Assembly (NCBI GenBank): GCA_026416125.1
Contig: JAOAFT010000011.1
Location: 150 to 64,149 of the forward strand
Source: Bacteroidota bacterium
GTDB lineage: Bacteria > Bacteroidota > Ignavibacteria > UBA10030
Direction: 5' to 3'
Length of the DNA stretch: 64,000 nt
A model generated the notes under the pieces. The model worked only from the letters and a program-made list of their open reading frames with translations. It was not told where the DNA came from and searched no databases. The position numbers and the translations under genes are program-made. Shown here piece by piece: positions 30,315 through 64,000 of this stretch; position 1 is the first letter of the stretch; the number at the start of each line of letters is the position of its first letter.

Positions 30315-32177
30315 TTATTCTATACTGGGGTATGCCCCTATGTATGTTTTTCCAATAGAACTTCTTAAGTATTGACGTATGATGGATGGAATTTTTTTCC
30401 CTTGTAATGTACTACTGAATTGCGGAAGAAGCCGCGGATTTTGAAGTTCAACGCTTTTCAAAATACTTCCCCTATAGTTCAGAAACTCGAAATTATTATT
30501 TGCAACTGCATTTTCATTTTGAAAATCTGTAACCGAACTGTAGAACACTTGGCATTGAGTGTTTTGGTATGGACCCCATAAAATTAGTGCGTTTGTTAGA
30601 GGATAGTGTGTGACAAAAACATTATGTTCAACTTCTTTTACCTGTGGTGTAGTAAGTATTGAGCATAGTGCTGCTGGTTGCCACACAAATAAAAGAGGTC
30701 GATTATGTTGTTCATCTGCTACTAGTAAATTATTTACAAACACATGTCCATCACGCCTATTAATATCGGGTCCTGTGCTTGCATGCCAACCGAAGTGATC
30801 TCCCGCTGCCACACGAGCATTTCTCCCTATACAAGCCATGCTATTGATGAAGGTATTATTGTAAATTTGAACATCAGAGCTATTTAGTATCAACAATCCA
30901 TGATCACAGTTTACAAATACATTCCCAGCGCAAATTGCACCTTTCGATATTTCAAAGAAAAAGCCGTTGTCACTTGGCCACAACTGATCTGTTCGTATGG
31001 AGGTTCGAGTATTTCCCACATTGACAATCCAATTGTTGACAAAAATACCGTCGACATTACCAACATCGTACCAAATTCCATTTGAATTTGGATGATCAAT
31101 TACAAGATTATCATTACAGGTTACTCGATAACATTGGTTAAATATCTTGACAGCCGCAGGATAATAGCCAGTGATATTCTCAATGTTATTTTTTTTGAAA
31201 ATATTCTTCTCAAGTATCACATCGTTTGAGCTTAATATGTAAAGCCCTTCAGTACTTGTATTACTTATTTCACAGTGTCGGAATACCATGCTATCTCCCC
31301 GGAAGTATCCAGCTACCCGTGAGCAGTAACTTATTGTACAATGTTCAAACACCGAACCAATAACATCTTTTCCATGGTCTTTCTCTGGTGAAATTCCTTC
31401 CGGATCTTTTCCTTCGATCTCAAGTGCACGGTATGCATACTGGGTAAATGTGATTCCTCGCAGTACAATGCCTCGTCGATCAGATTTTTTCCCATGGCAT
31501 TCTTTTATCGTTCGTAAAATTGCGATATCAAATGCGGTAATTTCTACACAGTGTTGTTGTGGATTTGTTCCAATATATACATACTTATTATCATAGTCGA
31601 TGTAGTATGAATCTTCAGTGACTTCACCTTCCCATCCAACAGACTGTAAAAATTTTCCATCGATAAACACCATGTCGTTGTTGAATTTATGTAATGGTGT
31701 TTTTTTCCCTTCCCGCTCCCTTCTCCACCAATCAGCCGGTTTTGACGGAAATAGACGATCCCACCGTGTACGCCAAAGCCCATTACCTAAATCGTGCCAT
31801 TGTTGAGCAATGAATGTCCCTTTGAAGATTGGATGCTCATCCCTGTATGGCTGAATTGTTATTCCCTGATTCACAATAAGATTCCCTGTACGATAAATGC
31901 CTCCTCGAAGAATTATAACATCGCCTGTTCGAACCTGTTCAATTGCCTTTTCAATTGTGGTAGGGTTATCTACTGTATGACCCTGACTCGCTGGATTGCC
32001 ATTAGGGGCAACATAATAGAGTTTACCGTACACCTTCGGTATTTCATATGTCACATGTTGTGGACCATATGGACCTCCCGATGGTTGAGTATTTAGAACA
32101 TTAGAAAGAATAACGAGGAAAAATAAATAAACTCTTATTCGTATTATTCTATTGTTGCCTCGCTCATGTTTCATCAT
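30315..32177 (-). CDS. secreted right-handed parallel beta-helix protein, uncharacterised (possible polysaccharide lyase or hydrolase)
   Basis: 620 aa with a signal peptide. The N-terminal cap YYVAPNGN...DNPTTIEKAIEQVRTGDVIILRGGIY is typical of pectate-lyase-fold proteins, and PbH1-like repeats (N/C-rich turns) recur. No T9SS tail is present. Confidence 0.65.
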   Translation of the reverse strand: MMKHERGNNRIIRIRVYLFFLVILSNVLNTQPSGGPYGPQHVTYEIPKVYGKLYYVAPNGNPASQGHTVDNPTTIEKAIEQVRTGDVIILRGGIYRTGNLIVNQGITIQPYRDEHPIFKGTFIAQQWHDLGNGLWRTRWDRLFPSKPADWWRREREGKKTPLHKFNNDMVFIDGKFLQSVGWEGEVTEDSYYIDYDNKYVYIGTNPQQHCVEITAFDIAILRTIKECHGKKSDRRGIVLRGITFTQYAYRALEIEGKDPEGISPEKDHGKDVIGSVFEHCTISYCSRVAGYFRGDSMVFRHCEISNTSTEGLYILSSNDVILEKNIFKKNNIENITGYYPAAVKIFNQCYRVTCNDNLVIDHPNSNGIWYDVGNVDGIFVNNWIVNVGNTRTSIRTDQLWPSDNGFFFEISKGAICAGNVFVNCDHGLLILNSSDVQIYNNTFINSMACIGRNARVAAGDHFGWHASTGPDINRRDGHVFVNNLLVADEQHNRPLLFVWQPAALCSILTTPQVKEVEHNVFVTHYPLTNALILWGPYQNTQCQVFYSSVTDFQNENAVANNNFEFLNYRGSILKSVELQNPRLLPQFSSTLQGKKIPSIIRQYLRSSIGKTYIGAYPSIE

Positions 32178-42049: not shown

Positions 42050-43960
42050 TTACTTCATCACAAAGGTTGTTATACTCATCGGATCAAGTGTATAGATCAA
42101 CACCCCATTAGCACTGAGAAACTCATTACCCTTTTGACAGTTTTTAACCTCCGATGTTGTGTAGGGAATAAATGTTGCAGCAACGGTAGTTCCAAGTTTA
42201 ATGGAACACCGTGACGAGGTCGTTGAAGAGTTGAGTACAACGATCACCAGTTTTTTCGTCTCAGGATGAATGTATGCTGTACCGATAATGGCTGTGTTGA
42301 AAATTGGGTGCGTAGTACAGTCAACCATTCTATAACCAGGTCGTACAAAACGAGCATAGTGTGACATTACGTACCCTTTCTTTGTCACTTCGCCTTTCAA
42401 GCCGCTATTGTTAGTTCCATCACTAATTGGTCCATAGTAGCGAACAATGTACCACCACACGTATGCACTCATGCGAGCTTTCATCACATCATGGATTTCT
42501 CGTGCGACAGGAAAAGCAAGTGACCACGCTTGAGGACTTGTTGTATTATCGGAACCTGTGAGATGTTCTGTCATCCATACTTCCTTACCTTTTTCCTCAG
42601 CTAAGGGATATGAAAAGAGCCCACCACCATAAATATGGCCACAAACAATATCCAAATGTCCACATGCACTAGCATCAAACAGAATTGAATCACTCAATTG
42701 CCGTCGAAATTGATACGACTCTGGCGCCATAACTTTTGTACCAAGCATTTTCCCATGCTCTTTTAAGAACTTTATCATTTGATGAGCATACCAATCGCAT
42801 GATTCATATGTCACCTTAATATCGGGTTCATTTTGAACGGAAACAGCATAGATTGGGGCTCCCTGTGACGCCATGTAATCGACAAACGATTTGAGGTGGT
42901 TCGCGTAACTACTGTAAGCATCTTCCCGTAACTGTCCACCAACGAGATTATTATTCGTTTTCATGGATGCAGGCGGTGACCATGGTGAAGCAATGAGCGT
43001 AACACCTTTTTGACATGCCACCTTAGCGGTTGGTACATTGTAGCTCCAATCATTTGAGTTAGGAGAGATTCTCAACCGTAAAATAGAAAGTCCAATTTGT
43101 CCATCCTCGGTACCAAAAGCTTTTTCAATTTCATCACTTGTCATATCGGGCCGCCAACCAACAATATTGGCAGCACCAAATCCACGAATGATTTGACGCA
43201 TACTATCGGGCCAGATCAGAAGCGTCGGATAATACTCTACAAAGAAATTTACTGTAGTATCAGAAGATATATAAATATTTTGGAGTTCCTGTGGAATAAT
43301 GTATGGTATTGTCCGGTCTGTATTTTCGATCCGTACTGTATACAAAGTACGTTGGAAAGTTGAACCACCATACCCTTGTTCTTTCAAAAAGGTAGGCACT
43401 TGCTGAAATTGAGTTATTCCAAAAGTACTGCCACTATTCCCCGACAACAACAATTTCCTAACGAATGCTCTACCGTTTACCATCACACGACAAAAGTAGA
43501 CGCCTTTTGAAACTGGATTACCACCGTAATCCTTCCCCTCCCAGTAGACGTAATGTAAGCCAGGAGGTTGTGTGCCACACGATGTGCTCCACACTTCTCT
43601 ACCAATCATATCATATATCGTTACTTGAACATTGGATTCATAAGCAAGTTCATACGGAATAGTCGTTCTTCCCACAAAGGGATTTGGGTAGTTCTGATGA
43701 ACAACGAACCGCAGTGGTTGTTTCATTGTATTCCCTTCTAGAGAAGAAATAATCCCAAGTTGATAATATCCATATTGATCGGTAATAGTTACATGTTGTA
43801 TTGTGGTATCTCCAAGATTAACAAACGTTACACGTGCAAATTGTACTGGTGTGGAAGCTGCATACACTCTTCCACTTACTAGCACCCCTTGGCTCCAAAG
43901 TGGCAAACTAAATACTAAAAGTAAACCGAAACTCAATAAACTCCTGTACCACATTGCCAT
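42050..43960 (-). CDS. GH30 (subfamily 8-like) glucuronoxylanase preceded by CarboxypepD_reg-like and an internal T9SS-sorting-like domain
   Basis: 636 aa. GH30 motifs GFGAAN, IASPWSPPASMK, YAVSVQNEPD and MAPE, with a C-terminal beta-sandwich. The N-terminal 175 aa consist of a signal peptide, a CarboxypepD_reg-like domain and a sorting-like module. Confidence 0.85.
   Translation of the reverse strand: MAMWYRSLLSFGLLLVFSLPLWSQGVLVSGRVYAASTPVQFARVTFVNLGDTTIQHVTITDQYGYYQLGIISSLEGNTMKQPLRFVVHQNYPNPFVGRTTIPYELAYESNVQVTIYDMIGREVWSTSCGTQPPGLHYVYWEGKDYGGNPVSKGVYFCRVMVNGRAFVRKLLLSGNSGSTFGITQFQQVPTFLKEQGYGGSTFQRTLYTVRIENTDRTIPYIIPQELQNIYISSDTTVNFFVEYYPTLLIWPDSMRQIIRGFGAANIVGWRPDMTSDEIEKAFGTEDGQIGLSILRLRISPNSNDWSYNVPTAKVACQKGVTLIASPWSPPASMKTNNNLVGGQLREDAYSSYANHLKSFVDYMASQGAPIYAVSVQNEPDIKVTYESCDWYAHQMIKFLKEHGKMLGTKVMAPESYQFRRQLSDSILFDASACGHLDIVCGHIYGGGLFSYPLAEEKGKEVWMTEHLTGSDNTTSPQAWSLAFPVAREIHDVMKARMSAYVWWYIVRYYGPISDGTNNSGLKGEVTKKGYVMSHYARFVRPGYRMVDCTTHPIFNTAIIGTAYIHPETKKLVIVVLNSSTTSSRCSIKLGTTVAATFIPYTTSEVKNCQKGNEFLSANGVLIYTLDPMSITTFVMK
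43442..43711 (-). other. internal (non-C-terminal) T9SS sorting-domain-like module
   Basis: Residues 84-173 read FVVHQNYPNPFVGRTTIPYEL..VQVTIYDMIGREV..GVYFCRVMVNGRAFVRKLLLS. This matches the seven terminal sorting domains in the window, but 460 more residues follow. Confidence 0.7.
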
Positions 43961-44087: not shown

Positions 44088-47000
44088 TCACTTAACAACA
44101 ACGAATTTTCGAACTGCTGAAAAATGGCTTTTCCCATCGACAGTCTGGACATTGAGACGACAAAAGTATACACCGCTACTAAGTACTGTAGTATTCCATT
44201 GAAAGCTATAACGTTGTGGTGGCTGGATAGCATCTACTAAGGTAGCAACCTCACGTCCTAACAGATCATATACTTTTATCGTAACATGGGATTTTATTGG
44301 GATTTCGTAAACGATCGTTGTGGTTGGGTTGAAAGGATTTGGATAATTGAGAAATAACATGTATTCAGCAGGTACTTTGATGCTTGTCTCTTTCTCCACG
44401 CCTACCAAGTATTGATTAATTAGCGCCTCCTCACTCCCGGCCTGGGATTTCCAGGAGTCATACAATTCTGGCCACCAGCGATATAAATCACCTAACGGGT
44501 ATCCACTCATAGCCGCTGTTTTGAGAATACTATTCGTGTATGAAAAATTTTCTTCTAAAGGCCACATATAATTAAAACTATTCTGTACTTTCCAAGCCCA
44601 CAATGTATCAAAACAACTATACCATTTTCCATCGATAAATTTTTTAAGCGCTAGTGTATCAAGTGCAGGACGTACAAAGTTGGGATTATAACTATCATGT
44701 TTAATTAATTCGTTTAATTTTTCAGGTACATCTATGATTAAAGTATTCCCCCACGGCCATGGGTATGTAAGTAAAGAATCCTCAACCCCATTATATATAT
44801 GCTCTTTCCTTATAAAAGGAAATCGTTTGGTCCCATCAGGGTTGCGTGATTCAAAGAACGCTAACGTTTTCCACGAAAACATTGGCTGTGGAAGTGGGAT
44901 TTTAGCTTTTTCATTAAATAGAAATCCTACTTGTGCAGAATTTGACTCAGCCAACATCCATCGAACTAGCCATGGGTCTAGGCTATACGAACAATTGGCA
45001 ACGACGATTCTTCGTTCCTGCTCGGGATTTTCAACTCCTTTAGCCCATTGTGGTAAAAAACCAAAATTCGTGATACTATCAATTCGAAAAACTCCATCTG
45101 GTTCATACTGACCAGTATTGGAATTAAAAACAGTCATACAAGGTATCCACCCATATATCCAACAATTTGCGAATAAAGAATTTGTCACAGCTAACTTATA
45201 CCACCAACCTGATTGGAGCGGGTACATGACAACATTATAAAAGGTACAATGGTTAAATTTGACAACATCTGCATAATTCTCATTTTCCTGGTTTAGAACA
45301 TAGCCAATGTTGGCAAAAGTACAGTTTTCAAATATAAGTGTATCAATATGATGGCCTTCAGATTGATATGGGAACGAAATCGCTCTTCCATAGTACCGTA
45401 AATGTGGATCGACACAATTTTTCCAGTAGCAATTCTTAAATGTACCCCGAAAGTTTCTACATGTAACGGTAATAGCACTAGAAGAAACAGTTGAGACTCC
45501 AAAAAAATCAAGTATAACATTTTCTAAAAAGCACCGGTGAACATTCTGGTCAGTAGTATCCTTGAAAATAATACATGCATATGCTTGATATCCTTCCGTA
45601 AAAGCACAAAATAGCCACACGTTTTTCAATGTTAAATGACCATAACAGCGTATCATTGTAAATGAACCCTTTGATTTATTCGAAAGAAGAATCTGAGGTG
45701 GTGCTGTTTCCTGCGATCTACCTGGATCGGGAGCTATAATTGTGAGATGTTCACCCGGCGGTACTAGAATTTCATTATCGAGAATGTAACGACTATTTAA
45801 CTCAAGTAAAAAAACAGTACGCGAAAGAGCACCGGATATAGTGTTGATGGTGTTAATAACTCGGTTAAGATTTCCAATCCTACCTGTTCTTGAGTCACTC
45901 ACAACTCGTACGGTATCGCTACGATAAGTATTACCAGTCGTAAATCCATAAACAGAAGAATATTCACTTTCACCACTATCATTTTGAGCTCTAACACGCC
46001 AGTAGTATGTAGTAGAAGGAGTTAATGGTAAGAGAGAGAGAACCGTATCAACTACTATCGTATCAATAAAAATTGATCCAGGAGGAAAATGACTAAATGT
46101 AGAAATTTGGACACGATAGGCCTTTGCCGATTCAGAACTTTTCCATATTAATTTAGGATTGATGTCAACATTCGTTGAACCATTTAACGGTAATACAAGA
46201 ACTGGTGTAAACGGTAGTGAACAATAGTAACGAAGCCAACTGACAACTGGTCGTTCTTTCCCACGAGCATCAATTACGTATGTATTTGGATGTGATGCCC
46301 AAACATCGTCGTAATGATATCCCCAAAGAGTAATTCCTTTAACGCCAGGATTATTCCAAAAGAGAGGGAAGTAAATTTTATATTGAGCAACTTGATTTGA
46401 ATCGTTTGGTTCATCAACATCGAATTCGGTGATGTAAACAGGAAGACCTGTTGCAATAAGTCTGTTTAAATTAGTTTTAATAACATTGATGTCATAGATA
46501 TAACTGGGCGTTTTCCCAATGTCGCTCCGAAATTCGAAGTAGTGTCCTTGAATACCAATACCATCAATTAAACCACGTGTTTTCAATAAGTTGATAAGTG
46601 TCAGGTAATTCGTCGTTACCGTATTGCTATGAAGAACATTGTACTCATTGAGTAACAATTTTGTCATTAATGGGTATGCTTTGCGAGCTAGTTGGAATGC
46701 CGTTATAACCCAATCCCACCCTGTGGTCCCATTACCCCCAAGTGCATTCTTATACAGCGGTGGTGCGTTGAATGGCTCATTGACAACATCGACATATGCT
46801 GTTTGGGGGTACCGCTTCGCCACTGTGTCAATCCATCGCTCAATAGCAAGTCTCTGCGCAGACGAATCGAGAGCGGTAATCCACGAGGGTTGCTGTTGTC
46901 CCCAAATAAGAGTGTGTTGTTTAAAGGGAATATTATGTCGTAGTGCAAAAGAATAGATCGAATCCAAATTTGCAAATGAATACTGACCTTGAACGTATTC

Positions 47001-47225
47001 AACAGATCCCCACTTTCCATCATTGCCAGGTGTTATTTGGTTCCAATATACATTGAACCTGCTCCACACTGGGCTTTTTGTTCCAGCACCCAAAAATTTA
47101 CTTTTCCCTGCTGCTAATGGCCTTTGTGCGCATAAATCAACAACAAGACCCACACTCACAAGTCCTACAAAAAACGTACTTTTGATATACCAAATTTGTT
47201 TTGTTAACACCTTATTCACCCCCAT
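44088..47225 (-). CDS. multidomain xylanase: GH10 - Fn3-like - uncharacterised ~510-aa beta-helix-like module - T9SS sorting domain
   Basis: 1045 aa. GH10 at about 46221-47123 (WNQITPGNDGKWG, VVNEPFN, ITEFDV). Fn3-like at about 45936-46208. Unknown module at about 44391-45923, paralogous to the gene at 50669-52582. Sorting domain at 44091-44369. Confidence 0.85.
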   Translation of the reverse strand: MGVNKVLTKQIWYIKSTFFVGLVSVGLVVDLCAQRPLAAGKSKFLGAGTKSPVWSRFNVYWNQITPGNDGKWGSVEYVQGQYSFANLDSIYSFALRHNIPFKQHTLIWGQQQPSWITALDSSAQRLAIERWIDTVAKRYPQTAYVDVVNEPFNAPPLYKNALGGNGTTGWDWVITAFQLARKAYPLMTKLLLNEYNVLHSNTVTTNYLTLINLLKTRGLIDGIGIQGHYFEFRSDIGKTPSYIYDINVIKTNLNRLIATGLPVYITEFDVDEPNDSNQVAQYKIYFPLFWNNPGVKGITLWGYHYDDVWASHPNTYVIDARGKERPVVSWLRYYCSLPFTPVLVLPLNGSTNVDINPKLIWKSSESAKAYRVQISTFSHFPPGSIFIDTIVVDTVLSLLPLTPSTTYYWRVRAQNDSGESEYSSVYGFTTGNTYRSDTVRVVSDSRTGRIGNLNRVINTINTISGALSRTVFLLELNSRYILDNEILVPPGEHLTIIAPDPGRSQETAPPQILLSNKSKGSFTMIRCYGHLTLKNVWLFCAFTEGYQAYACIIFKDTTDQNVHRCFLENVILDFFGVSTVSSSAITVTCRNFRGTFKNCYWKNCVDPHLRYYGRAISFPYQSEGHHIDTLIFENCTFANIGYVLNQENENYADVVKFNHCTFYNVVMYPLQSGWWYKLAVTNSLFANCWIYGWIPCMTVFNSNTGQYEPDGVFRIDSITNFGFLPQWAKGVENPEQERRIVVANCSYSLDPWLVRWMLAESNSAQVGFLFNEKAKIPLPQPMFSWKTLAFFESRNPDGTKRFPFIRKEHIYNGVEDSLLTYPWPWGNTLIIDVPEKLNELIKHDSYNPNFVRPALDTLALKKFIDGKWYSCFDTLWAWKVQNSFNYMWPLEENFSYTNSILKTAAMSGYPLGDLYRWWPELYDSWKSQAGSEEALINQYLVGVEKETSIKVPAEYMLFLNYPNPFNPTTTIVYEIPIKSHVTIKVYDLLGREVATLVDAIQPPQRYSFQWNTTVLSSGVYFCRLNVQTVDGKSHFSAVRKFVVVK

Positions 47226-47255
47226 TACTCATTACTCTTCATCTAATATGAATAA

Positions 47256-47288
47256 AAAAGCGGCTCGCTTTTTCAGCGAGCCGCTTTT
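47256..47288 (-). terminator. rho-independent terminator
   Basis: Minus strand reads GCGGCTCGC-tgaaaaa-GCGAGCCGC followed by TTTTTTATT. The stem is flanked by A-run and T-run, so it could act in both directions. Confidence 0.75.
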
Positions 47289-47299
47289 CGGAATGCATC

Positions 47300-50200
47300 T
47301 TACTTCAACAAGAGGAGTTTCTTCACCGCTGAGAAATTCTTTGCCCCATCAATACTTCGGGCTTCGATCTTGCAGAAATATACACCTGTGCTAAAGTTCG
47401 AAGCATTCCAATGAATAGTGTAACTCCGCGCAGGCTGAACCTCATCAACCAATGTTGCGACAGCTCGACCGAGAATGTCATAGATTGTAATTTTGACATT
47501 CGAAGTCATTGGAATATCATAGTTAATTGCCGTTGTTGGGTTGAATGGGTTCGGGTAATTTTGGCTTAAGGCAAACTCACGTGGAATAACACTTTCAGCT
47601 TCCACGTTGGTTACCGTACCAACATCAATTGGAATACTTGTTGTGTCAATTGTCACATCGTATACACGAAGCCCCTTTACTGTATTCCCTGGAGTCAATG
47701 CAAAGGAAATACAGTTGAAGTTCGTAACAGCTGAATGCGTCGTTACGAAGCTAGCTGCATACGTGTATCCAGGTTTCCAGAGTTTGAAACGTACGGTGGC
47801 TTCCGATTCATTGCGTGTGACCGACAATGCAAAATCATATAACCCTGAATCAGCTATTGCACCTTTTGGCATTTGCTCAAAGTTCCCAAGGGCAACAGCT
47901 CCTTCTGTTTCTGGTGAAAACCAAAGTGCATTTGATACAACACCAATTGAACCAACTGCACCACCCGATGTTCCCCACGTTGGATTTGGATTGTTACCAC
48001 TACGTGGAATTATTAATAACCCAGTATGTGCATTCTCAGCACCTGTCCAACGCGTTGAATCTCCATCACTCGGTGTATTATCAATTACGAGATTACCAAG
48101 TGTAGCATTGAAAATACCTAAACGGAGGCTCGCTGGTGCAGCAAAACCGCTTTCAATTTGACCAGTAATTTTCAATCCACGCTTGATGGTCGGTGTAAAT
48201 GGATCAAATTCACCACGAATTGCTGCAATGTCTGTATTAGGAGCAGTACCAACAATACCAGCACTCCCATCAAAAACACCTTTTTCAAAGAACCAACCAC
48301 CATACCGACTACCAACGATGCCCCAACGAGTGACTAAGTACTTCTGGAATGGCGCCTCTGGAATTGTAATGACACCAGTATCAACTTTCACATCTTCTAC
48401 TGAGAACCCTCGAATTCCCCAGGTGTCACTGTTGATAATTCCAAACGTTACACCATTGAACGTTGGTGGAATAATCGTCGTATCAACAAAACTTCCAGCC
48501 CACCAATAACTAAAGCTCTCTCCCTGAGGCTTGACCAAGAAGAATTTTACTTCTTTTGTGCCATCACTTCGAAGTTGAACCGAAATCGCAAAGTCGTACG
48601 TCCCAGCCTCTGCTATCGATCGATAGGGCACCTGGCGGATAATACCAGTGGAGAGATTGCTCCCATATGTTGAAATCCATGAACTGTTGTTTCGAACAAT
48701 ACCCTGGGTTCCTCCACCACCATTTGCCCAGTTCGGTATATCAAACGTACTGCTTGGCGGACAGAACAAATACCCAGTCCCAGTCTCCTCTCCATCCACT
48801 ACACGCGCAGAATCGGTACCAGCATATCGAACATATCGCCACCGAGCACTGTCCGTCAACGGATTATAAAGTGTTCCAGCATTTGGCAGATTGTTCAATC
48901 CAAATCGCAACCCATTCCACACTGTAATACCAGCACTGTCAAACGTCAACTTCCCAGTAATCTTCAACGACCGACCAGGCTTAATCGTCACTGGCTCAAC
49001 AAATGCACCTCGTATCACATTCCATGTCCCTCGGGGTGGCGCTGACCCAACTAACCCTGCAGATCCATCAAAAGTCCCAGGGACAAATCTCCATGTCGCT
49101 GATAATCCACGTCGCAATACACCCCAATTTGCAATTGGTATGTAATATGCCTCCCATGGCGCCTCTGGAATAACAAGAGGATCACCAAATGTCACTTTCA
49201 CATTAGAAAGGTACAAGCCTCGGAGCTGCCCACGTTCTGCACCATTCCCACCATTAATGCCGAAACACAACCCATTAAACGTTGCTGGTATAATTGTAGT
49301 GTCAATAAACTTCCCTGCCCACCAATAACTAAAGCTCTCACCTTGTGGTTTAACAAGGAAAAATGTGACTTCTTTTGTGCCATTAGCCAGGTGTTGCACT
49401 GAAATTGCAAATTGGTATGTACCCTCCTCAGCAATTGCACGAGAAGGTTTTTGACGAATAATCCCTGTGGAGAGATTATTCCCAAAAGTTGACAACCAAG
49501 AGCTATTTCGAATAACACCCTGGGTTCCTCCACCACCATTTGCCCAGTTCGGTATGTCGAACGTACTACTTGGTGGTACAAACGTGTAACCACCAATAGC
49601 AATCTCTTCTGCATCTACCACTTGAGCACTATCCGTTCCAGGATATTTTACATATCTCCAACGTGCAGAATCGGTTCCAGCATTATAAATAGTCCCTGCT
49701 TGTGTATGATAGGCTAAACCGAATCGCAATGCACTCCAAGTTTCAATACCTGCGCTATCAAAAACCAATGTTCCAGTTACGACGAGTGTTCTTGTTTGAG
49801 GTATTGTGGTTGCGGGGAACTCACCACGAATAACTGTCCACGGTCCATTCGGGGGAGTTGTACCTCTAATTCCAATGGTCCCCGGTGTTGTGCTTGGAAC
49901 TAGCTTCCAATTCGGTGCAGGCCCACGCCTAAAGAAAGCCCAATCGGAAACCATCACTTCTGTCGATGAAATGGTTATATCATCAATATAGATTGTCTCT
50001 ACACTTGCTGCACTCATCCACACTTGAATACCTAAACGTTTAAATGCACCAACATTGGTGAGTGTAGCTTCAATTTCATTCCATTCATTTGCCACAAGTT
50101 GATTGAGGCTTTTCTCTGGCCCATTGTACCATGTCCACCCGGAACCAGATTGCCAGAAAAATTTAATAACACCTGATTTTGATACTAACGAAGCATCAAC

Positions 50201-50479
50201 CCACACCTTTGCTTTTGCAATATATCCTTCCTGTACAATGCTTCCTAACCCATCGTTGGCAAAAATAATTTGCTGCTCACCTTCTTTCGTGGATACTTTT
50301 GCAGATTGTACTCCACTAGCTGCTCTATCCTGGCTCAATTCCATGGGTTGTCCTGAAATCCAACCGCTTGACCAACCACCCATATTCGTCTCGAAGTTCC
50401 AGGATTGTCGTACGAACTGGGCATAGAGAGAACCTACGCACCAACTCACTATCAATAATGTGATTATAAGCTTCTTCAT
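47300..50479 (-). CDS. secreted repeat protein: CBM-like N-domain, three ~260-aa repeats of an unknown domain, T9SS sorting domain
   Basis: The ATG at 50479 has AAGGAGG 7 nt upstream; the tracked start is a TTG. Signal peptide present. The CBM4_9/22-like region (SWNFETNMGGW...IYIDDITI) is followed by the repeats. Sorting domain at 47303-47578. Confidence 0.8.
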   Translation of the reverse strand: MKKLIITLLIVSWCVGSLYAQFVRQSWNFETNMGGWSSGWISGQPMELSQDRAASGVQSAKVSTKEGEQQIIFANDGLGSIVQEGYIAKAKVWVDASLVSKSGVIKFFWQSGSGWTWYNGPEKSLNQLVANEWNEIEATLTNVGAFKRLGIQVWMSAASVETIYIDDITISSTEVMVSDWAFFRRGPAPNWKLVPSTTPGTIGIRGTTPPNGPWTVIRGEFPATTIPQTRTLVVTGTLVFDSAGIETWSALRFGLAYHTQAGTIYNAGTDSARWRYVKYPGTDSAQVVDAEEIAIGGYTFVPPSSTFDIPNWANGGGGTQGVIRNSSWLSTFGNNLSTGIIRQKPSRAIAEEGTYQFAISVQHLANGTKEVTFFLVKPQGESFSYWWAGKFIDTTIIPATFNGLCFGINGGNGAERGQLRGLYLSNVKVTFGDPLVIPEAPWEAYYIPIANWGVLRRGLSATWRFVPGTFDGSAGLVGSAPPRGTWNVIRGAFVEPVTIKPGRSLKITGKLTFDSAGITVWNGLRFGLNNLPNAGTLYNPLTDSARWRYVRYAGTDSARVVDGEETGTGYLFCPPSSTFDIPNWANGGGGTQGIVRNNSSWISTYGSNLSTGIIRQVPYRSIAEAGTYDFAISVQLRSDGTKEVKFFLVKPQGESFSYWWAGSFVDTTIIPPTFNGVTFGIINSDTWGIRGFSVEDVKVDTGVITIPEAPFQKYLVTRWGIVGSRYGGWFFEKGVFDGSAGIVGTAPNTDIAAIRGEFDPFTPTIKRGLKITGQIESGFAAPASLRLGIFNATLGNLVIDNTPSDGDSTRWTGAENAHTGLLIIPRSGNNPNPTWGTSGGAVGSIGVVSNALWFSPETEGAVALGNFEQMPKGAIADSGLYDFALSVTRNESEATVRFKLWKPGYTYAASFVTTHSAVTNFNCISFALTPGNTVKGLRVYDVTIDTTSIPIDVGTVTNVEAESVIPREFALSQNYPNPFNPTTAINYDIPMTSNVKITIYDILGRAVATLVDEVQPARSYTIHWNASNFSTGVYFCKIEARSIDGAKNFSAVKKLLLLK
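47636..49945 (-). repeat. three tandem intragenic repeats (about 49166-49945, 48350-49129, 47636-48328)
   Basis: Repeats 1 and 2 share long identical runs (FDSAGI, TDSARWRYV, GTDSA.VVD, PPSSTFDIPNWANGGGGTQG, LSTGIIRQ, FFLVKPQGESFSYWWAG, DTTIIP.TFNG), and each ends with IPEAP(W/F). Repeat 3 is divergent but collinear. Confidence 0.8.
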
Positions 50480-50623
50480 ACACAATCCTCCTTTTGATGA
50501 ATAACAAATTTGTTAATTATAGTAGTCTCGTATGTATAATTATCACTTTTCTATCTAGACCTATCACCTCCTTTATCGCACACAATAATCCAGATTAACT
50601 TCTGAACTTAAACTCATAGTTCT

Positions 50624-50668: not shown

Positions 50669-52582
50669 CTATTTCATCAGCACAAACTTTTTCGTTATTT
50701 GAATATTCCCTGCTTTTAGTCTATAGAAGTAAACACCACTCGCTAAATTGTTTGCAGTAAACGTGACTTTGTATTCTGATGGTTCTTGCATTTCATCAAC
50801 TAACGTCGCGACTTCCTGACCTAGTAGTGAGTACACTTTGATTGTTACATGCTCTTTTACAGGAACAGTGTATCGTATTGTTGTAGATGGATTGAACGGA
50901 TTAGGATAATTTTGATATAACTCAAACTGAGCAGGAATTATTGTTCCATCCAGTCTTTCAACCGAAGTAATACCATTGTATAACCAGTTATCAATAGTAG
51001 CATCTTCAGCTGCTTTTTGTGCTAACCACTGTTGATATCTCTGAGGCCACCACCTAAACAGGTCGCCGAGTGGAAATCCACCCATGCCTGCGGTTTGCAA
51101 TGTTGTATTAGTATACGCAAGGTTTTCTGTTAATGGCCATTGCATATATTGACCCTCATATGGTCTCCATGCCCAATTCGTATCACTGTTGTCTACCCAT
51201 TTTCTCTGCATGAATCCCCGAATGAGTGCTGTATCTGTTACAGGTACTAGAAAGTTTGGACAATACATTTCATTTCGTACAAGATTATCGAGCGCTCCAG
51301 TTACTTGTGTTATTTTTCGCCTTCCATCTGGACTCCATGGCCATGGATATGTGAGCATATCCTCATTTAGACCATTGTAAAGATTTCTTCGATTAATGTA
51401 TGGAAATGCTTTCTGACCCGTTGCAGTTACAGAATCGAAAAAGACCTTTGTTTGTGGACTCAACATTGGATGTGGCAATGGAATCATATCAGGTGTACGA
51501 GCACGGAACATTGAATCTGCCCACTTGTTATCAGCTAACATCCATTGGACTAACCATTTTTCCAGCGCATATGCACTATTAGTGAACAATATTCGACGTT
51601 CTTGTTCTGGATCTGAAACCCCTTGAGCCCACCAAGGAGTAAATCCAAAGTTCGAGACGCTATCAATTCTGAAAACTCCACCGTTTGGTTCATATTTTCC
51701 TGTATAATTACTTTTACCGGTCTGTGCTGGCATCCAACCAAACATCCAGCAATTCACAAACAAGCAATTTGTCACTGCAAGTTTATACCACCAACCAGAT
51801 TCCAAAGGGAACATAACAACGTTGAGGAATGTACAATGGTTAAATTTAACATAGTCGTGAAATTCGCCACCTTCCTGCATTAGGACATATCCCATGTTAG
51901 CAAACGTACAGTTTTCGAAAACAACGCTATCGCCATGCCATCCCGTCGTTTGGTATGGGAATGACAATGCACGCCCATAGTATCGTAAGTGTGGATCGAT
52001 ACAATTCTTGAAGTAACAATTTTTAAAAGATCCTTTAAAGTGAGTGCAAGTAACTGTTACTGCTCCTCCAGCATTTGGTGGACATGGACTATAATCAAAA
52101 ATGACATTTTCAAATATACCGTACTGACCGGCTACAGCATTTGGGTCTTCAGCAAAAAGGATAGTTGTTCCTACTTGCTCACCATTCGTATTCGCATACC
52201 GCACCCACAGATTTTTCATTGTTAGATGACCGTTACACTGAATGAGATAACTTCTGTTAACACCTCCTGTTGGTGTCCACACAATTTGGGGAGGGCATGT
52301 TTCAGGAGTATTCCCTGGTTGTGGTGCAATGATTGTTAGTTTTTGACCTGCCGGTACATTCAATGTCCCTACCAAAACATAATAACCACCAAGTTGTAAC
52401 CTAAATGTTGTGTTCGACAAAGTTCCTGCATTAAGAGCTGCTTGAACAGCATCATTGAGTTTTCCTTCGCGCAACTCACCAGTGTTTGGATTCCAGTCAC
52501 TTGGCACATCAACAATCGTCTGTGCAATCAAGAAAACAGGAACTACGATTGACCATAATAAAAGTATACCTCGTTTCTTCAT
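50669..52582 (-). CDS. uncharacterised secreted beta-helix-like protein with T9SS sorting domain, immediately downstream of the TonB-dependent receptor
   Basis: The ATG at 52582 has AGAGGAGAGAG upstream; the tracked GTG at 52621 would overlap the receptor stop. Signal peptide present. Repeated N/C-rich turns (FKNCYFKNC, FENCTFAN, FNHCTFLNV, VTNCLFVNC) are followed by a Trp-rich C-terminal region. Sorting domain at 50672-50926. Confidence 0.8.
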   Translation of the reverse strand: MKKRGILLLWSIVVPVFLIAQTIVDVPSDWNPNTGELREGKLNDAVQAALNAGTLSNTTFRLQLGGYYVLVGTLNVPAGQKLTIIAPQPGNTPETCPPQIVWTPTGGVNRSYLIQCNGHLTMKNLWVRYANTNGEQVGTTILFAEDPNAVAGQYGIFENVIFDYSPCPPNAGGAVTVTCTHFKGSFKNCYFKNCIDPHLRYYGRALSFPYQTTGWHGDSVVFENCTFANMGYVLMQEGGEFHDYVKFNHCTFLNVVMFPLESGWWYKLAVTNCLFVNCWMFGWMPAQTGKSNYTGKYEPNGGVFRIDSVSNFGFTPWWAQGVSDPEQERRILFTNSAYALEKWLVQWMLADNKWADSMFRARTPDMIPLPHPMLSPQTKVFFDSVTATGQKAFPYINRRNLYNGLNEDMLTYPWPWSPDGRRKITQVTGALDNLVRNEMYCPNFLVPVTDTALIRGFMQRKWVDNSDTNWAWRPYEGQYMQWPLTENLAYTNTTLQTAGMGGFPLGDLFRWWPQRYQQWLAQKAAEDATIDNWLYNGITSVERLDGTIIPAQFELYQNYPNPFNPSTTIRYTVPVKEHVTIKVYSLLGQEVATLVDEMQEPSEYKVTFTANNLASGVYFYRLKAGNIQITKKFVLMK

Positions 52583-59633: not shown

Positions 59634-60458
59634 TTACTTGCATCTACAAATTCGAAAACCTTGATCGGGCCCCTTTCCACTTGGGTCAAAAACACCACGA
59701 AAAGATATTTCGCAACTGAATTCCACTCCCATCCAACCTCCTCCTTTCCAAACTCTACCACTTACCTCACTTGATTGCGCATGTTTAAGATCCCAACACC
59801 ATTCGCGTACATTCCCTGACATATCATATATTCCCAATTCATTAGCATTTTTCTGACCAACACGCTTAGTAGCATTATTATTTCTTTCTATATCAGACCA
59901 CGACCACATACCAGTTAAAAAAGCGATCCCAGAATTTCTCCAGTACCATGCAACTTCCTCAATAATGTTACTCCCACTGTAAATGTACTTTCTGCTCAAT
60001 TGACCTCCACTTGCTGCATACTCCCACTCTATTTCCGTCGGTAATCGATATCCATTTGCACCTTCGTTTATTGTTACTAACCACTTGAGACTATCAGTTT
60101 CACACGTGTTTGTCGAATCTTTAACATTTTTATTAATGATGTAGTACGGAATTAGCCCTTCACGAATACTTCTCCGATTACAATACTCGACACAATCGTA
60201 CCAACTCACCATCTCCACTGGTAAATTATCTCCCCTAAATCTTGATGGGTTTGATCCCATAATTTCCCGCCATTCTCTTTGTGTTACTTCATAACGGCCT
60301 ATGTAGAAATCATGCACGAAATTATTGCTATTAAAGAACTTCGAGTGTGGATTTCTAAATATACCTCCTTGTACTAAAATGAGTTCCTCTGAATCATTGT
60401 GAGAACAACTAACGATTTGGCTAATACCAATAATAACTATTATGTGAAATTTCTTCAT
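59634..60458 (-). CDS. formylglycine-generating-enzyme (SUMF1/FGE) fold lipoprotein
   Basis: ATG at 60458; the tracked start is a GTG. Lipoprotein-like signal ending ..QIVSC. FGE-sulfatase domain motifs YEVTQREW, GYRLPTEIEWEYAA, GNVREWCWD and RGG.W. Confidence 0.8.
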   Translation of the reverse strand: MKKFHIIVIIGISQIVSCSHNDSEELILVQGGIFRNPHSKFFNSNNFVHDFYIGRYEVTQREWREIMGSNPSRFRGDNLPVEMVSWYDCVEYCNRRSIREGLIPYYIINKNVKDSTNTCETDSLKWLVTINEGANGYRLPTEIEWEYAASGGQLSRKYIYSGSNIIEEVAWYWRNSGIAFLTGMWSWSDIERNNNATKRVGQKNANELGIYDMSGNVREWCWDLKHAQSSEVSGRVWKGGGWMGVEFSCEISFRGVFDPSGKGPDQGFRICRCK

Positions 60459-60662
60459 GTATGTAATTTCTTTCACCCTATGGAATAAGAATAATTCTTA
60501 CCAGCATACAATTATACGATATACGAAATTAACGATGACAAAGGGTACCATCACACCTGTTCGCACATTATCTCATCACGATCCGTGTATTTACACATTG
60601 ATCGTGAAGGTTAATTGACACTGTGTAATGCCAACTAACCTTCACATGTCAACGACGTTTTA

Positions 60663-61701: not shown

Positions 61702-64000
61702 TTACTCACCCCAATACCTTTTTTTCTTCCATACGATGACACCTATCGTACCATACAACAATATTCCAATCATAAACGAAATCGAAAATCCATACAGCAT
61801 CGAGCATACCATAGCAAACACAGATCCTAACACTGTCATTGACCCATTGAAACCATACAACCACGGAATGGAGGTTTCACCACCATGTTTTCGAGCAACA
61901 GAAAGAGCACTAGGGAATGGAATACCTAAAAAAAACCCAAATGATAACAGAAATCCAGCAACACTTATTACACGAATAACTCGTTCATATCCCATAAGAG
62001 CTGCAAGAATTTTGGGTGCCACCAAAAACATAGACATTCCATAGAATACAATCACTATACTCACATAAAAAATTCTTTGATAATTACTACCTCGTATTAC
62101 GTGCTGACCTGTAATACTTCCACAGCCCATCCCCAGTAGAAGCACACAGAGAAGTATAGAAAGAGCAATCGTTGGAGTACCCATATACAACACAAGAACC
62201 TGAAACAACGATACTTCAAGAGCTATAAACCCAAAGCCAAGGAAACCAAATATGAATACGAGTGTTTTCACTGAGTGCAAATTTGGAAGTTTCCTTTCAC
62301 CTCTAATCTTCTGAAAACTAAGCATAGCAATGCCACAATTGAGAATACTAAAAACAACAAGTAGTGTTACGAACTCTGTTGGAATAAATTTCGTCACTTT
62401 ATAAAAAAACGGGCGATCATCGGTGCACACTGATATGTCAAAACGGTGCTTTGCAATGTATTCCTGCAAAGTGGTCGTACCACTCTTGAGCGCTAATACC
62501 ATAGAATGTGCATCAGAGCAAGCAAGTATATCTCCTTCCCTGCTTTGAGTACGATTTACACAACTAGGAAGATAAGAGACATAGGGATAGTCCTGAGGAA
62601 GTCTATATGAAATCGACTCCCATTGGGAAATCTCAGACACAGTGAAAGGATTCCTTTTTACTACAACTGTTGGCGGGTAGTATGCAGATTCAACAATTGC
62701 TATATGGTTCAATGCATCTTGGACAGTAATCCCCCGCTCCTCAAGTACAGTGCAAACTGTCGCAATAATGCGCATAAGTTCCAATGAATTGTGAAGTGTA
62801 AAATGAATCTGACCCTCAAATGTTAACTTATCAAAGTACTCTCGGATTGCTTCTACTGTTAGTAAGTAATTTTCATTGGCTGCAAGTGCTTCAACATTCT
62901 GCAATTGCTCTGTTGATGGTAATGAAATGACAATAATATCGTATTGAGCCTTTGATCGTGTGATGTAATGTCTTCCCTCGTCAACGTGTATTGCTACATT
63001 GGAAAACTTAGTATAAATGCCACCATTGAAGTTACTGTTGTCTTTCACAAGAGCTACAAAATCAGGATTTACTTCTACACCTATTATAGAACGTATGTTA
63101 CTGAAAAGCCCAAGAAGAACTTCCTTACCGCCCCCTGGTCCTATTATAAGCATTGTATCTTTTTGATTATCGTTAAGCACCGTGAATGGAAAACCAGTTG
63201 TTTCATGAAGAAGAAGATCGAGTAACAAACGCTCAGGATGGATTGCGTTACCACTGAAACGGTACATCGGTGAACCAGCTGCGCCATCAATAAAAAGGTA
63301 TTGCACAATATCCTGATGGCTATATTTAACTAAGTCTGAACGTCCATAGATACTCCATCGACTTTCTACAATAGAGGGTGCTATGGAAAGAGAGGGATAT
63401 ACATAGTAAAAATCTTTCTCAGGGAATTGACCAATTGCTACCTCTGGTAACAATATTTCCCTTCGAAATTGTAAAAAACTTCCGAATACAATAAACCATA
63501 AAAAAATAAGGACCCATTTAAGTACCTTTTGTTTTACCGAACGTACCATAACAGCAGTACCAGCGACAATAAGTGAAATTAGGAGAACACTATTTGGCGC
63601 TCCGAATAAATCAAGGAGTACCAAAGGCATGAGTGCTCCAAAGGAAGCACCAGCAAGATCAGCTGCATAGAAGGAAAAACTTTTAACTGCAAAATTCGTA
63701 TAAACTTGGGCATAGAGAATTCCAGCGACTACAAATGGTGGAGTCACGAGGAAGAAAAAAATCACAACATTGGTTACTTGGAATATAGTTACAGTAAAAA
63801 TAAAGCCAAGTAACGTACTAGCATAGACAAGTAAGAGCGAACTAATTAACTTGTCCGATACATGATTCCTTTTAACACAATAAAATGAGAGAATAGCACC
63901 ACATGACAGTCCTAGAATAGCAAATGATAAAACAATAAATGCATACGATGAAACAAAAATTACCGATGTAATTCTAGTTACCAGAATTTCGAAACATATA
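61702..64000 (-). CDS. polytopic membrane protein with embedded spermidine-synthase-like (class I methyltransferase fold) domain; 5-prime end outside the window
   Basis: The frame stays open to the window edge; the tracked GTG at 63765 is internal. Multiple TM helices flank a soluble domain with MLIIGPGGGKEV...VEVNPDFV...DIIVISLP, typical of fused SpeE-like proteins. Confidence 0.7.
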   Translation of the reverse strand, partial: ICFEILVTRITSVIFVSSYAFIVLSFAILGLSCGAILSFYCVKRNHVSDKLISSLLLVYASTLLGFIFTVTIFQVTNVVIFFFLVTPPFVVAGILYAQVYTNFAVKSFSFYAADLAGASFGALMPLVLLDLFGAPNSVLLISLIVAGTAVMVRSVKQKVLKWVLIFLWFIVFGSFLQFRREILLPEVAIGQFPEKDFYYVYPSLSIAPSIVESRWSIYGRSDLVKYSHQDIVQYLFIDGAAGSPMYRFSGNAIHPERLLLDLLLHETTGFPFTVLNDNQKDTMLIIGPGGGKEVLLGLFSNIRSIIGVEVNPDFVALVKDNSNFNGGIYTKFSNVAIHVDEGRHYITRSKAQYDIIVISLPSTEQLQNVEALAANENYLLTVEAIREYFDKLTFEGQIHFTLHNSLELMRIIATVCTVLEERGITVQDALNHIAIVESAYYPPTVVVKRNPFTVSEISQWESISYRLPQDYPYVSYLPSCVNRTQSREGDILACSDAHSMVLALKSGTTTLQEYIAKHRFDISVCTDDRPFFYKVTKFIPTEFVTLLVVFSILNCGIAMLSFQKIRGERKLPNLHSVKTLVFIFGFLGFGFIALEVSLFQVLVLYMGTPTIALSILLCVLLLGMGCGSITGQHVIRGSNYQRIFYVSIVIVFYGMSMFLVAPKILAALMGYERVIRVISVAGFLLSFGFFLGIPFPSALSVARKHGGETSIPWLYGFNGSMTVLGSVFAMVCSMLYGFSISFMIGILLYGTIGVIVWKKKRYWGE

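Follow-up and report, generated by a model that had tools for sequence, protein, structure and literature searches.

The beta-helix module of protein A, a T9SS-exported protein of 637 residues, is probably a glycan-capturing partner of the outer-membrane transporter encoded next to it and not a domain dedicated to xylan, because its gene lies almost always directly after an outer-membrane sugar transporter, in several phyla. The favoured reading is that of a non-catalytic module, anchored by way of type IX secretion (T9SS), with a role like that of SusD or SGBP beside the TonB-dependent transporter (TBDT). It is given slightly better than even odds (about 55%). The features of the locus are listed in Table 1; the window is the whole stretch of DNA that was analysed (64,000 nucleotides).

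Table 1. Features of the locus. Coordinates are nucleotide positions in the window.
Feature	Size or residues	Coordinates	Strand	Description
TBDT	1010 aa	52618..55650	minus	directly upstream of A; N-terminal CarboxypepD_reg-like domain, Plug, barrel
Protein A	637 aa	50669..52582	minus	signal peptide, beta-helix/Trp-rich module, T9SS CTD
Module proper of A	20–545	50948..52525	minus	AlphaFold2 pLDDT 93.1, pTM 0.93
T9SS type A CTD of A	559–637	50669..50908	minus	PF18962, TIGR04183; match to CTD of PDB 8glj_D
Protein C	1061 aa	47300..50485	minus	T9SS-exported, internal repeats, N-terminal Mann_GBD-like domain (Pfam)
Terminator-like hairpin		47253..47289	minus	strong; 15-bp stem, 8 G-C pairs, T-run; just past the stop codon of gene C
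Protein B	1045 aa	44088..47225	minus	signal peptide, GH10, Fn3/Ig-like domain, module, T9SS CTD (Pfam, BLASTP)
GH10 of B	57–330	46236..47057	minus	Pfam
Fn3/Ig-like domain of B	about 340–432	45930..46208	minus	Pfam
Module copy in B	449–945	44391..45881	minus	'A2'-type paralogue; separate gene in other genomes
T9SS CTD of B	961–1045	44088..44345	minus	34.1 bits (PF18962), 36.0 bits (TIGR04183)

The module and its fusion to a xylanase

Proteins A and B both qualify as T9SS type A cargo, each with an N-terminal Sec signal (MKKRGILLLWSIVVPVFLIAQ in A, MGVNK...LCAQ in B) and a C-terminal domain (CTD) above threshold. The CTD of A scores 43.7 bits with PF18962 (cut-off 27) and 48.1 bits with TIGR04183 (cut-off 23). 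The initial annotation had recognised no Pfam signature in the module, and sequence searches of Pfam, NCBIfam and the PDB indeed identify the T9SS CTD alone. Among the Pfam models only Por_Secre_tail passes, with Beta_helix (PF13229) at 17.2 bits, below its cut-off of 25.9; the CTD is the sole NCBIfam match and the sole match of phmmer to all PDB sequences at E ≤ 10. The DUF4957 and DUF5123 families, named earlier as candidates, give no Pfam match to A or B at E ≤ 0.01. Some distant members do pass PF13229 (31.8 bits for a homologue in locus L009, 36.5 bits for P0147). Since A falls below the cut-off and these members above it, the superfamily straddles the limit of this generic model. Kinship with the other beta-helix protein of the window (30315–32177, NosD/Pel9A-like) was considered and rejected; the match is marginal (E 8e-4 over 103 residues) and the protein belongs to a different family.

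Residues 38–637 of A and 449–1045 of B form one collinear BLASTP alignment with 298 identities in 607 positions (49%, E = 0), in agreement with an earlier estimate by eye that about half of the positions are identical. The segment of the GH10 protein named at that time corresponds to the module copy in B, and the blocks LTIIAP, DPHLRYYGRA.SFPYQ, FENCTFAN, VKFNHCTF, SGWWYKLAVTN, LTYPWPW and PLGDL.RWWP all lie within the alignment. The alignment ends in the T9SS CTD (~85 residues), which is common to many proteins of the locus. Once the CTD is set aside, the specific module comprises ~500 residues (about 480 in the superfamily).

On this contig the module therefore occurs both free-standing beside the TonB transporter and fused to GH10, as first described. 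The covalent fusion with a xylanase is real, but among 5.8 billion proteins it is confined to this contig; in other genomes the second paralogue has a gene of its own, which often adjoins GH10. A frameshift or assembly artefact was ruled out as the origin of the fusion. Protein B has neither the CTD of free GH10-Fn3 orthologues (P0269) nor the signal peptide of a free module and is thus an in-frame domain fusion. A simple duplication of A does not give a clean account of B either: in the tree B groups with the paralogues that are not next to a transporter, yet two indels are common to B and A. Other fusions place the module C-terminal to a Sortilin/BNR protein (P0143) or join it to CBM35 or Fn3. 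This C-terminal position behind catalytic domains, as in B, and the joining to CBM35 and Fn3 are the behaviour of binding modules.

Predicted fold and conserved residues

The AlphaFold2 model of the whole protein A has a mean pLDDT of 89.9, and the module alone is predicted with still higher confidence (Table 1). Rungs of β-strands extend from about residue 22 to 340 and are followed by a mixed α/β, Trp-rich part (340–540) and the β-sandwich of the CTD. A right-handed β-helix with a Trp-rich C-terminal part had been guessed from the periodicity of the sequence; the model supports this, with the latter part mixed α/β. Matches to the CTD and to Ig-like domains swamp a Foldseek search with the whole protein, and the fold comparison rests on the module alone. 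With the module, Foldseek returns β-helix proteins only, at 9–15% identity and TM-scores of 0.38 or less. The best match is the PL6 alginate lyase 7dmk (E 8.6e-5, TM 0.38, 14–15% identity); further neighbours are chondroitinase B (1dbg), Pel9A (1ru4), GH55, GH82, CE8 and tailspike depolymerases. Pectate-lyase-like enzymes of this kind (7dmk, 1dbg, 1ru4, GH55 and phage tailspikes) share the N-terminal fold of ~320 residues and the Asn ladder with the module, but have no counterpart of its C-terminal 200 residues.

An Asn/His-x-Thr ladder (N193, N224/T226, H249/T251 and N272) is conserved throughout the superfamily, as are the C-terminal positions W482, P483, Y490, G506, D507, L508 and W511. Conservation over all subfamilies is strongest in the motif WP.PENLSYTN..L.TAG..GFP.GDLNWFP, regardless of the glycan; in A it reads WP..EN.aY.N...TAG.GGFPLGDL.RWWP (residues 482–513). 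Only two charged positions, R329 and D507, are conserved at this level. The conservation analysis revealed no acidic pair or triad in the helix that is retained superfamily-wide, and the PL6 pattern of a catalytic Lys/Arg pair with a Ca-binding Asn/Glu/Glu site is not conserved across the superfamily. Aromatic residues are frequent among the positions that set the xylan subfamily apart (W102, W126, Y201, Y202, Y232, W265, W343, W462 and Y516), and four acidic or His residues (D196, H198, E237 and E526) are invariant within this subfamily.

These four residues could form an active site. The module might accordingly be a new catalytic β-helix CAZyme (a glycoside hydrolase, esterase or lyase) that acts beside the transporter, with B as a bifunctional enzyme. 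All of its nearest structural neighbours are enzymes, bifunctional GH fusions are common, and the mannan subfamily bears CBM35 appendages, a feature more characteristic of enzymes than of binders. We nevertheless consider this unlikely. GH and PL families normally retain their catalytic residues, the similarity to the enzymes is low, and a single fold family is associated with chemically very different glycans, on the neutral ones of which lyase chemistry is impossible. A lyase as the general function, prompted by the top matches to PL6, was rejected because the glycans concerned are mostly neutral and the Lys/Arg plus Ca-site pattern is not conserved; PL6 enzymes act on uronate-containing substrates. 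A catalytic module would be the founder of a new CAZyme family.

The initial annotation had left binding and catalysis side by side. As judged from the sequences, binding is the more likely function, because an acidic pair or triad is not found superfamily-wide in the helix and because a precedent exists in CBM89 (PMC8810776). CBM89 (CapCBM89, PDB 7JVI; Cabral et al. 2022) is a non-catalytic helix that binds xylan and arabinoxylan via aromatic and acidic surface patches (PMC8810776). Like the module of B it is a large right-handed β-helix that is joined to a GH10 xylanase and encoded in a xylan locus. It differs in being N-terminal to GH10, in having 14 turns and in lacking the Trp-rich C-terminal part (PMC8810776), and no description of it as T9SS cargo or as a free-standing partner of a transporter is known. 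7JVI is not matched by A with phmmer (E up to 10) or by the profiles A3 and A5 (E up to 1), nor is it among the 50 best Foldseek matches of the module. By analogy with CBM89, the fused 'A2' module of B may act in targeting like a very large CBM; alternatively, it may tether the xylanase to the uptake machinery. A glycan-binding module would found a CBM-like family whose fold is shared only with CBM89, and would represent a new, very large carbohydrate-recognition scaffold.

Genomic context across phyla

In the window, 36 nt separate the gene of A from that of the TBDT; a GTG start would give an overlap of 4 nt. Of the paralogues in the xylan subfamily, protein A is the one next to the transporter ('A1'). 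Among GTDB genomes, 143 of 174 module genes (166 loci) are directly downstream of a TBDT gene and co-oriented with it, and the CTD motif is present in 161 of the 174 family members. The same arrangement, with the TBDT immediately upstream, is found for 67 of 83 genes of the xylan subfamily. A diverse sample of the superfamily, drawn by the pattern GDLNWFP, has the module behind a TBDT in 77 of 83 cases; five of the others lie at contig edges and one follows another module, so that 77 of 78 informative cases (about 99%) come directly after a TBDT. The median gap between the two genes is 75 bp. A surface enzyme supplying the transporter would also account for such adjacency.

The xylan subfamily comprises about 80 GTDB loci in which GH10, GH30, GH3, xylose isomerase and the like are encoded, and its gene order is GH3, MFS, TBDT, module, repeat protein, GH10/GH30. 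Relatives with 21–30% identity trail transporters in loci for mannan (GH26, GH130, GH27 and GH5; Melioribacter and Rosettibacter are among the carriers) and galactan (GH53/GH35), in GH94/β-glucan loci (GH94/CE4), in chitin/N-glycan-like loci (GH18/GH125/GH29/CBM9) and in sulfatase-rich loci. Orthologues are thus not found mostly outside glycan loci, which had been named as a finding that would weaken the link, and the xylan subfamily is tightly tied to xylan loci. The proposal of a xylan-directed domain may hold for this subfamily; for the superfamily it is too narrow, given its mannan, galactan, GH94/β-glucan, chitin/N-glycan-like and sulfated-glycan contexts. Each type of locus encodes T9SS endo-glycanases of its own (GH10, GH5/GH26, GH53 or GH18). 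The role of a surface enzyme is therefore already filled, which further argues against a catalytic module.

Carriers belong to the Ignavibacteriota, Calditrichota, KSB1, Marinimicrobia, Kryptoniota, Balneolales and some Saprospiraceae. The superfamily contains 9,844 clusters at 50% identity with E ≤ 1e-30, a count that includes fragments and was obtained with a profile that included the CTD. For this reason the counts at E ≤ 1e-3 (387,054) and E ≤ 1e-10 (254,784) are inflated by unrelated T9SS cargo, and only that at E ≤ 1e-30 is meaningful. The locus searches were based on module-only alignments (A3 and A5), and the distant loci L009 and L010 came from scans keyed on the T9SS motif YPNPFNP (5 and 3 loci). 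A published description of the module family was not found in open-access papers or bioRxiv.

Two further readings bear on the position behind the transporter. In the first, the module serves for docking or as a scaffold within the transporter complex (a lid or enzyme platform analogous to the utilisome); it would bind little glycan, and the fusion in B would dock the xylanase. The near-constant TBDT adjacency in the diverse sample is in line with this, and the glycan-independent C-terminal motif, which is the most conserved part and is retained in the A2 paralogues, fits a constant protein–protein interface. The motif could equally be a hydrophobic helix cap, and the subfamily-specific aromatic residues and the strict tracking of the glycan type favour ligand recognition; a scaffold thus appears rather improbable, more so than an enzyme. 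Under the other reading, the protein would fasten cells to plant particles as a general adhesin or in the manner of an S-layer protein, and its proximity to the transporter would be due to co-regulation only. The module is a large T9SS-anchored β-helix and is part of giant fusions that also carry FG-GAP, LamG and dockerin domains (L030). An adhesin would, however, have no need of a one-to-one pairing with a TBDT, and the extremely constant order, always as the gene right after the TBDT at a short distance, with a single copy in each locus and a separate subfamily for each type of glycan, makes this reading very improbable.

The proposed transporter partner and its known counterparts

For the glycan-capturing partner the following course of events is proposed. 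Protein A would be exported via Sec and T9SS and held on the cell surface by its type A CTD. Its aromatic-rich, subfamily-specific face would bind xylan or xylo-oligosaccharides, the latter freed by T9SS-exported GH10, GH11 and GH30 enzymes, and pass the ligand on to the neighbouring TBDT, to be imported in a TonB-driven step; the imported sugars would then be handled further by GH3 and the MFS_2 transporter. The role of SusD and SGBP in Bacteroidota would here be filled by an unrelated fold with a different anchoring route.

The likeness to SusD and SGBP lies in the gene immediately downstream of a glycan TBDT, in one variant per glycan type and in the presumed exposure on the surface. The order transporter, partner, gene C and GH10 mirrors the order SusC, SusD, SGBP and GH10 of Bacteroides xylan loci. 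Sequence and fold are not related: SusD has an all-α TPR fold, whereas the module is predicted as β-helix plus α/β, and the SusD/RagB Pfam models PF07980, PF12741 and PF14322 do not match at E ≤ 0.01. SusD carries a lipoprotein signal; the signal peptide of A is not followed by a lipobox Cys, and the protein has the T9SS CTD instead. The transporter differs from SusC as well, being of the TIGR01782 (TonB-Xanth-Caul) type with 329 bits against a cut-off of 310; the SusC model TIGR04056 covers only its N-terminal residues 34–240, and Pfam identifies CarbopepD_reg_2, CarboxypepD_reg and Plug. The TIGR01782-type TBDTs of Xanthomonas and Caulobacter are not known to have a SusD-type partner gene. 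The BtuG/BtuB system provides a precedent for TBDTs that recruit structurally unrelated, adjacently encoded surface proteins as ligand-capturing lids (PMC10404256), although BtuG is a β-propeller lipoprotein for vitamin B12 with no homology to the module.

Protein C is the conserved third gene of a core of transporter, module and C in xylan loci and follows the module in most of them. Its counterpart in locus L001, encoded at the equivalent position, shares 39% identity with it over 915 residues. No terminator was found between the genes of the TBDT, A and C at the locus, and the hairpin behind gene C is likely to mark the end of their transcription unit.

A more general reading is put forward tentatively, at short of even odds: the whole superfamily might be the equivalent of SusD outside and at the margins of Bacteroidota, anchored via T9SS, in complex with the TBDT through the motif GFPxGDLNWFP and holding the glycan on its aromatic face. 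A 2026 review still treats SusC/SusD as a hallmark of Bacteroidota (PMC13543919). The prediction of polysaccharide-utilisation loci relies on this pair, and no equivalent marker is in use for four phyla whose members abound as degraders in soils and sediments, in hot springs and in the ocean (Ignavibacteriota, Calditrichota, KSB1 and Marinimicrobia). With its glycan-specific subfamilies and its position behind the TBDT, the module would supply such a marker and a handle on substrate specificity. If it is indeed a SusD equivalent, the pair of TBDT and module would allow loci to be found and typed in these four phyla, in Kryptoniota and in their relatives. The question is directly testable since cultured carriers exist (Melioribacter and Rosettibacter). 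Since a classical SusCDE set is likewise present in Melioribacter roseus (PMC3534657), the module is not simply a stand-in for a missing SusD.

A module shared by two secreted proteins

Residues 38–637 of protein A, which is encoded beside the TonB-dependent transporter (TBDT), and residues 449–1045 of the GH10 protein B align in BLASTP as a single collinear block (298 of 607 positions identical, 49%, E = 0). The repetition of a module in A and B, noticed in the initial annotation, is thus borne out in every detail. The final ~85 residues of the alignment are the C-terminal domain (CTD) of the T9SS, and the specific module comprises ~500 aa. In B, the order according to Pfam is GH10 (57–330), an Fn3/Ig-like linker (~340–432), the module and the CTD. 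The best Pfam match of the module, Beta_helix, lies below the threshold (17.2 versus 25.9 bits) and NCBIfam gave no match, in line with the initial annotation, which had recognised no CAZy or Pfam signature. Searches of PDB sequences with the single sequence and with profiles yielded no match either.

AlphaFold2, run with a 50-sequence alignment, gave a pLDDT of 89.9 for the whole of A and of 93.1 for the module alone (pTM 0.93). In the model of A, short β-strands form a rung pattern from residue ~22 to ~340, followed by a mixed α/β region (340–540) and the β-sandwich of the CTD. Foldseek matched the module exclusively to right-handed β-helix proteins in the PDB: the PL6 alginate lyase 7dmk (E 8.6e-5, TM 0.38, 15% identity), chondroitinase B, Pel9A, GH55 and phage tailspikes. 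The C-terminal 200 residues of the module have no PDB counterpart in this search. Model and matches agree with the fold guessed beforehand, a right-handed β-helix followed by a Trp-rich region. No solved family includes the module.

Coordinates of the features discussed (window positions unless a locus is named)
Feature	Position	Strand	Remarks
Protein A	50669-52582	-	637 aa; module residues 20-545; carries both insertions
Protein B	44088-47225	-	1045 aa
Module copy within B	44391-45881	-	residues 449-945 (BLASTP); carries both insertions
Protein C	47300-50485	-	1061 aa; T9SS CTD
Hairpin 3' of C stop codon	47289-47253		15-bp stem and T-run
GH30 protein	42050-43960	-	CTD-like segment near N-terminus, residues 91-170
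Second β-helix protein, unrelated to module	30315-32177	-	620 aa; Pfam Beta_helix and NosD
FGE-sulfatase (formylglycine-generating enzyme-like) domain protein	59634-60476	-	between GH11 and GH3
ORF upstream of GH11	61702-63765	-	687 aa; no Pfam match
A orthologue in L011	L011 236-1804		carries both insertions
Two successive module genes behind one TBDT	L093 3291-7352
Mannan-locus subfamily (within L087-L166)	L145 9815-12355
Mannan-locus subfamily (within L087-L166)	L146 9860-12400
Mannan-locus subfamily (within L087-L166)	L159 9824-12376
Large module protein	L030 8298-17021		2905 aa

The xylan locus and the GH10 fusion

The glycan locus begins with xylose isomerase at ~28.9 kb and reaches to GH11 at 61.4 kb or beyond, and every gene of the region lies on the minus strand. 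An alternative GTG start of A at 52621 would overlap the upstream gene by 4 nt. The TBDT–A and A–C junctions show no terminator-like site, and a strong hairpin follows C. Therefore, TBDT, A and C probably form one transcription unit, which possibly starts further upstream at GH3-MFS_2; transcription of B and of the enzymes behind it would be independent of this unit.

In most xylan loci, C is conserved as the third gene, placed after the module; the window copy and the gene of L001 are 39% identical. C contains about three internal repeats of ~270 aa with the recurring blocks WRYV.Y.GTDSA.VVD and FDIPNWANGGGGTQG. Apart from an N-terminal Mann_GBD-like domain in Pfam, no match was found there or among PDB sequences. 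C may be a second glycan-binding protein at the cell surface.

Some other genes of the window deserve mention. The CTD-like segment of the GH30 protein (FlgD_ig 34.7 bits, Por_Secre_tail 26.8 bits) lies behind a CarboxypepD_reg-like stretch and its C-terminus has no CTD, whereas the GH30 proteins that occupy this position elsewhere carry an ordinary C-terminal CTD. The layout may stem from rearrangement, from gene fusion or from mis-assembly. The second β-helix protein, Pel9A-like in its homologues and without a CTD match, is conserved beside GH10 genes in many xylan loci (L001, L004, L025, L040, L054, L086 and others) and may be an uncharacterised xylan-active enzyme. Positions 1–27000 have no relation to the glycan locus and carry genes of central metabolism and of amino-acid biosynthesis (glutamate synthase, an acetolactate synthase-like TPP enzyme, KARI, two LeuA-like proteins, DAHP synthase, an aconitase-family protein, aspartate kinase and an ILVD/EDD dehydratase).

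A protein search found 533 relatives, almost all of them free-standing proteins of 580–640 aa with a CTD, from Ignavibacteria, Melioribacteraceae, KSB1, Calditrichaeota and Marinimicrobia (here as elsewhere, taxa are named as by the MAG submitters). In the databases they go by no other name than 'hypothetical' or 'T9SS type A sorting domain-containing protein'. One gene order is common to the window and four long contigs of different phyla: (xylose isomerase/xylulokinase)-GH3-MFS_2-TBDT-module-large T9SS protein-GH10/GH30/β-helix. When GTDB species representatives were scanned with an alignment of the module alone, 77 loci were obtained, and mapping the window proteins onto them revealed the same arrangement nearly everywhere.

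A neighbour-joining tree was built from 83 modules. Of these, 67 are located directly behind the transporter, and almost all of the 67 belong to one large clade, A1. Copies without an adjoining transporter (A2) are basal to it, several of them directly following a GH10 gene (L040, L042, L054). Window A falls into A1, window B with A2. Both paralogues occur in one extended xylan locus in the window and on the contigs of L020, L060, L040+L071, L045+L054 and L037+L063.

Among 5.8 billion sequences, no other protein covers more than 43% of B. P0269, the GH10-Fn3-CTD orthologue, is a separate protein encoded on a contig with the A homologue P0007, and GH10 is also unfused in L011, the closest related locus (A 68% identical). 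Neither the CTD of free GH10 nor the free module's signal peptide is present in B, which marks it as a genuine in-frame domain fusion. As A2 genes adjoin GH10 genes in other genomes, the fusion ties the A2 paralogue to the xylanase in the manner of a Rosetta stone. Two insertions of 6 aa (PWWAQG-type) and 33 aa (including LTYPWPW) are found only in A, B and the L011 orthologue among 83 xylan-subfamily modules. The nearest neighbours of B form a mosaic, with A2 members in the first third and A (67%) in residues 200–340. Insertions and mosaic suggest gene conversion between the two paralogues in the window lineage.

Transporter pairing across the superfamily

Distant modules (23–24% identity over ~490 residues) in L009 and L010 are each located directly behind a TBDT. 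The neighbours in L009 (two GH5, GH27, an epimerase, a CBM35 protein and an ABC binding protein) indicate a galactomannan locus, those in L010 (GH53, GH35) a β-galactan locus. Among 1.84 billion representative proteins, many further clusters with full-length matches were found by profile, together with a recurrent architecture of 820–900 aa (module, one or two CBM35, CTD); the CTD inflates the overall count from this library. The whole superfamily shares the C-terminal signature WPxPENLSYTNxxLxTAGxxGFPxGDLNWFPxKKxxW. Scanning GTDB for GDLNWFP[DTL] gave 420 sites, 392 of them confirmed relatives. The best 80 loci were analyzed by crude ORF calling (longest ORFs) and a module HMM; TBDTs were identified by BLASTP to that of the window. 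Here, 77 of 83 module genes come right after a TBDT of the same orientation, with a gap of < 600 bp; five are at contig ends and one is behind another module. For all 166 loci the figure is 143 of 174 (median gap 75 bp), and 161 of the 174 module genes have the CTD motif.

According to Pfam annotation of the main neighbour clusters and per-locus maps, the contexts comprise mannan loci (GH26-epimerase, GH130, GH27, GH5; including Melioribacter roseus, Melioribacter sp. OK-6-Me and Rosettibacter primus), GH94/MFS/CE4-GDSL, GH18/GH125/GH130/CBM9/GH29, sulfatase-rich and GH9/GH5 loci. The xylan-directed role first proposed for the module fits the subfamily of A and B; the superfamily, with its mannan, galactan, GH94, GH18 and sulfatase loci, is not xylan-specific. 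As pairing is constant and contexts are diverse, pairing with the TBDT is the constant property of the superfamily and the glycan varies by subfamily.

Proteins of the mannan-locus subfamily (~845–896 aa; P0160, P0163, P0166) have one or two CBM35 between module and CTD. The cultured Melioribacter and Rosettibacter strains carrying it are the most accessible experimental systems. L144, L157 and L165 contain two consecutive TBDT-module pairs; together with the double module genes of L093 they recall the tandem SusC/SusD pairs of Bacteroidota loci.

Glycan capture or catalysis

Judged purely from context and conservation, the best-supported view is that A would be anchored at the cell surface through the T9SS and, without being catalytic, would capture glycan in concert with the adjacent TBDT (probability roughly 0.55). 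An unrelated fold would thereby fill the place that SusD or an SGBP has elsewhere. A docking or scaffold subunit that binds no glycan is improbable, and a general adhesin is hardly to be expected.

The module might instead represent a new catalytic β-helix family, which is unlikely. Catalytic residues are normally retained within GH and PL families, and across 171 aligned modules (87 xylan subfamily, 84 others) the helix preserves neither an acidic pair or triad nor a Lys/Arg plus Ca-site pattern. Lyase chemistry is impossible on neutral glycans, the kind found in most superfamily loci. Conserved to at least 85% in both sets are Y68, P97, G203, R329 and P442, an Asn/His-x-Thr ladder on successive rungs (N193, N224/T226, H249/T251, N272) and a C-terminal motif (W482, P483, Y490, G502, G506, D507, L508, W511). 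Only the xylan subfamily, in both paralogues, conserves the aromatic residues W102, W126, Y201, Y202, Y232, W265, W343, W462 and Y516 to at least 90%; D196, H198, E237 and E526 are likewise specific to it. In composition this set is typical of carbohydrate-binding surfaces, but it would also be compatible with a subfamily-specific active site.

Binding is further favoured by three observations. Every locus already has its expected T9SS-exported endo-glycanase. The module lies C-terminal to catalytic-type domains (GH10 in B, Sortilin/BNR in P0143) and is joined to Fn3/CBM35. CBM89 (PDB 7JVI), whose sequence relation to the module is undetectable, is an experimentally proven non-catalytic β-helix xylan binder on GH10 (PMC8810776). 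The A2 module fused in B would be a CBM89-like targeting or tethering module.

No description of the family, or of a T9SS β-helix partner of TBDTs, was found in the open-access literature; a September 2026 review of glycoside transporters mentions neither Ignavibacteria nor T9SS, and the M. roseus genome paper discusses only a single SusCDE set. Precedents exist for glycan loci that combine a TBDT with a surface partner and for a β-helix CBM on GH10. The protein family, the combination of fold and anchor and the near-obligate transporter pairing are new.

Other architectures were also observed. The Sortilin/BNR N-terminal region of P0143 (1736 aa) is possibly GH74-like, the L030 protein combines the module with Fn3, FG-GAP/UnbV_ASPIC, LamG and dockerin, and P0095 has a tandem module-Fn3-module arrangement.
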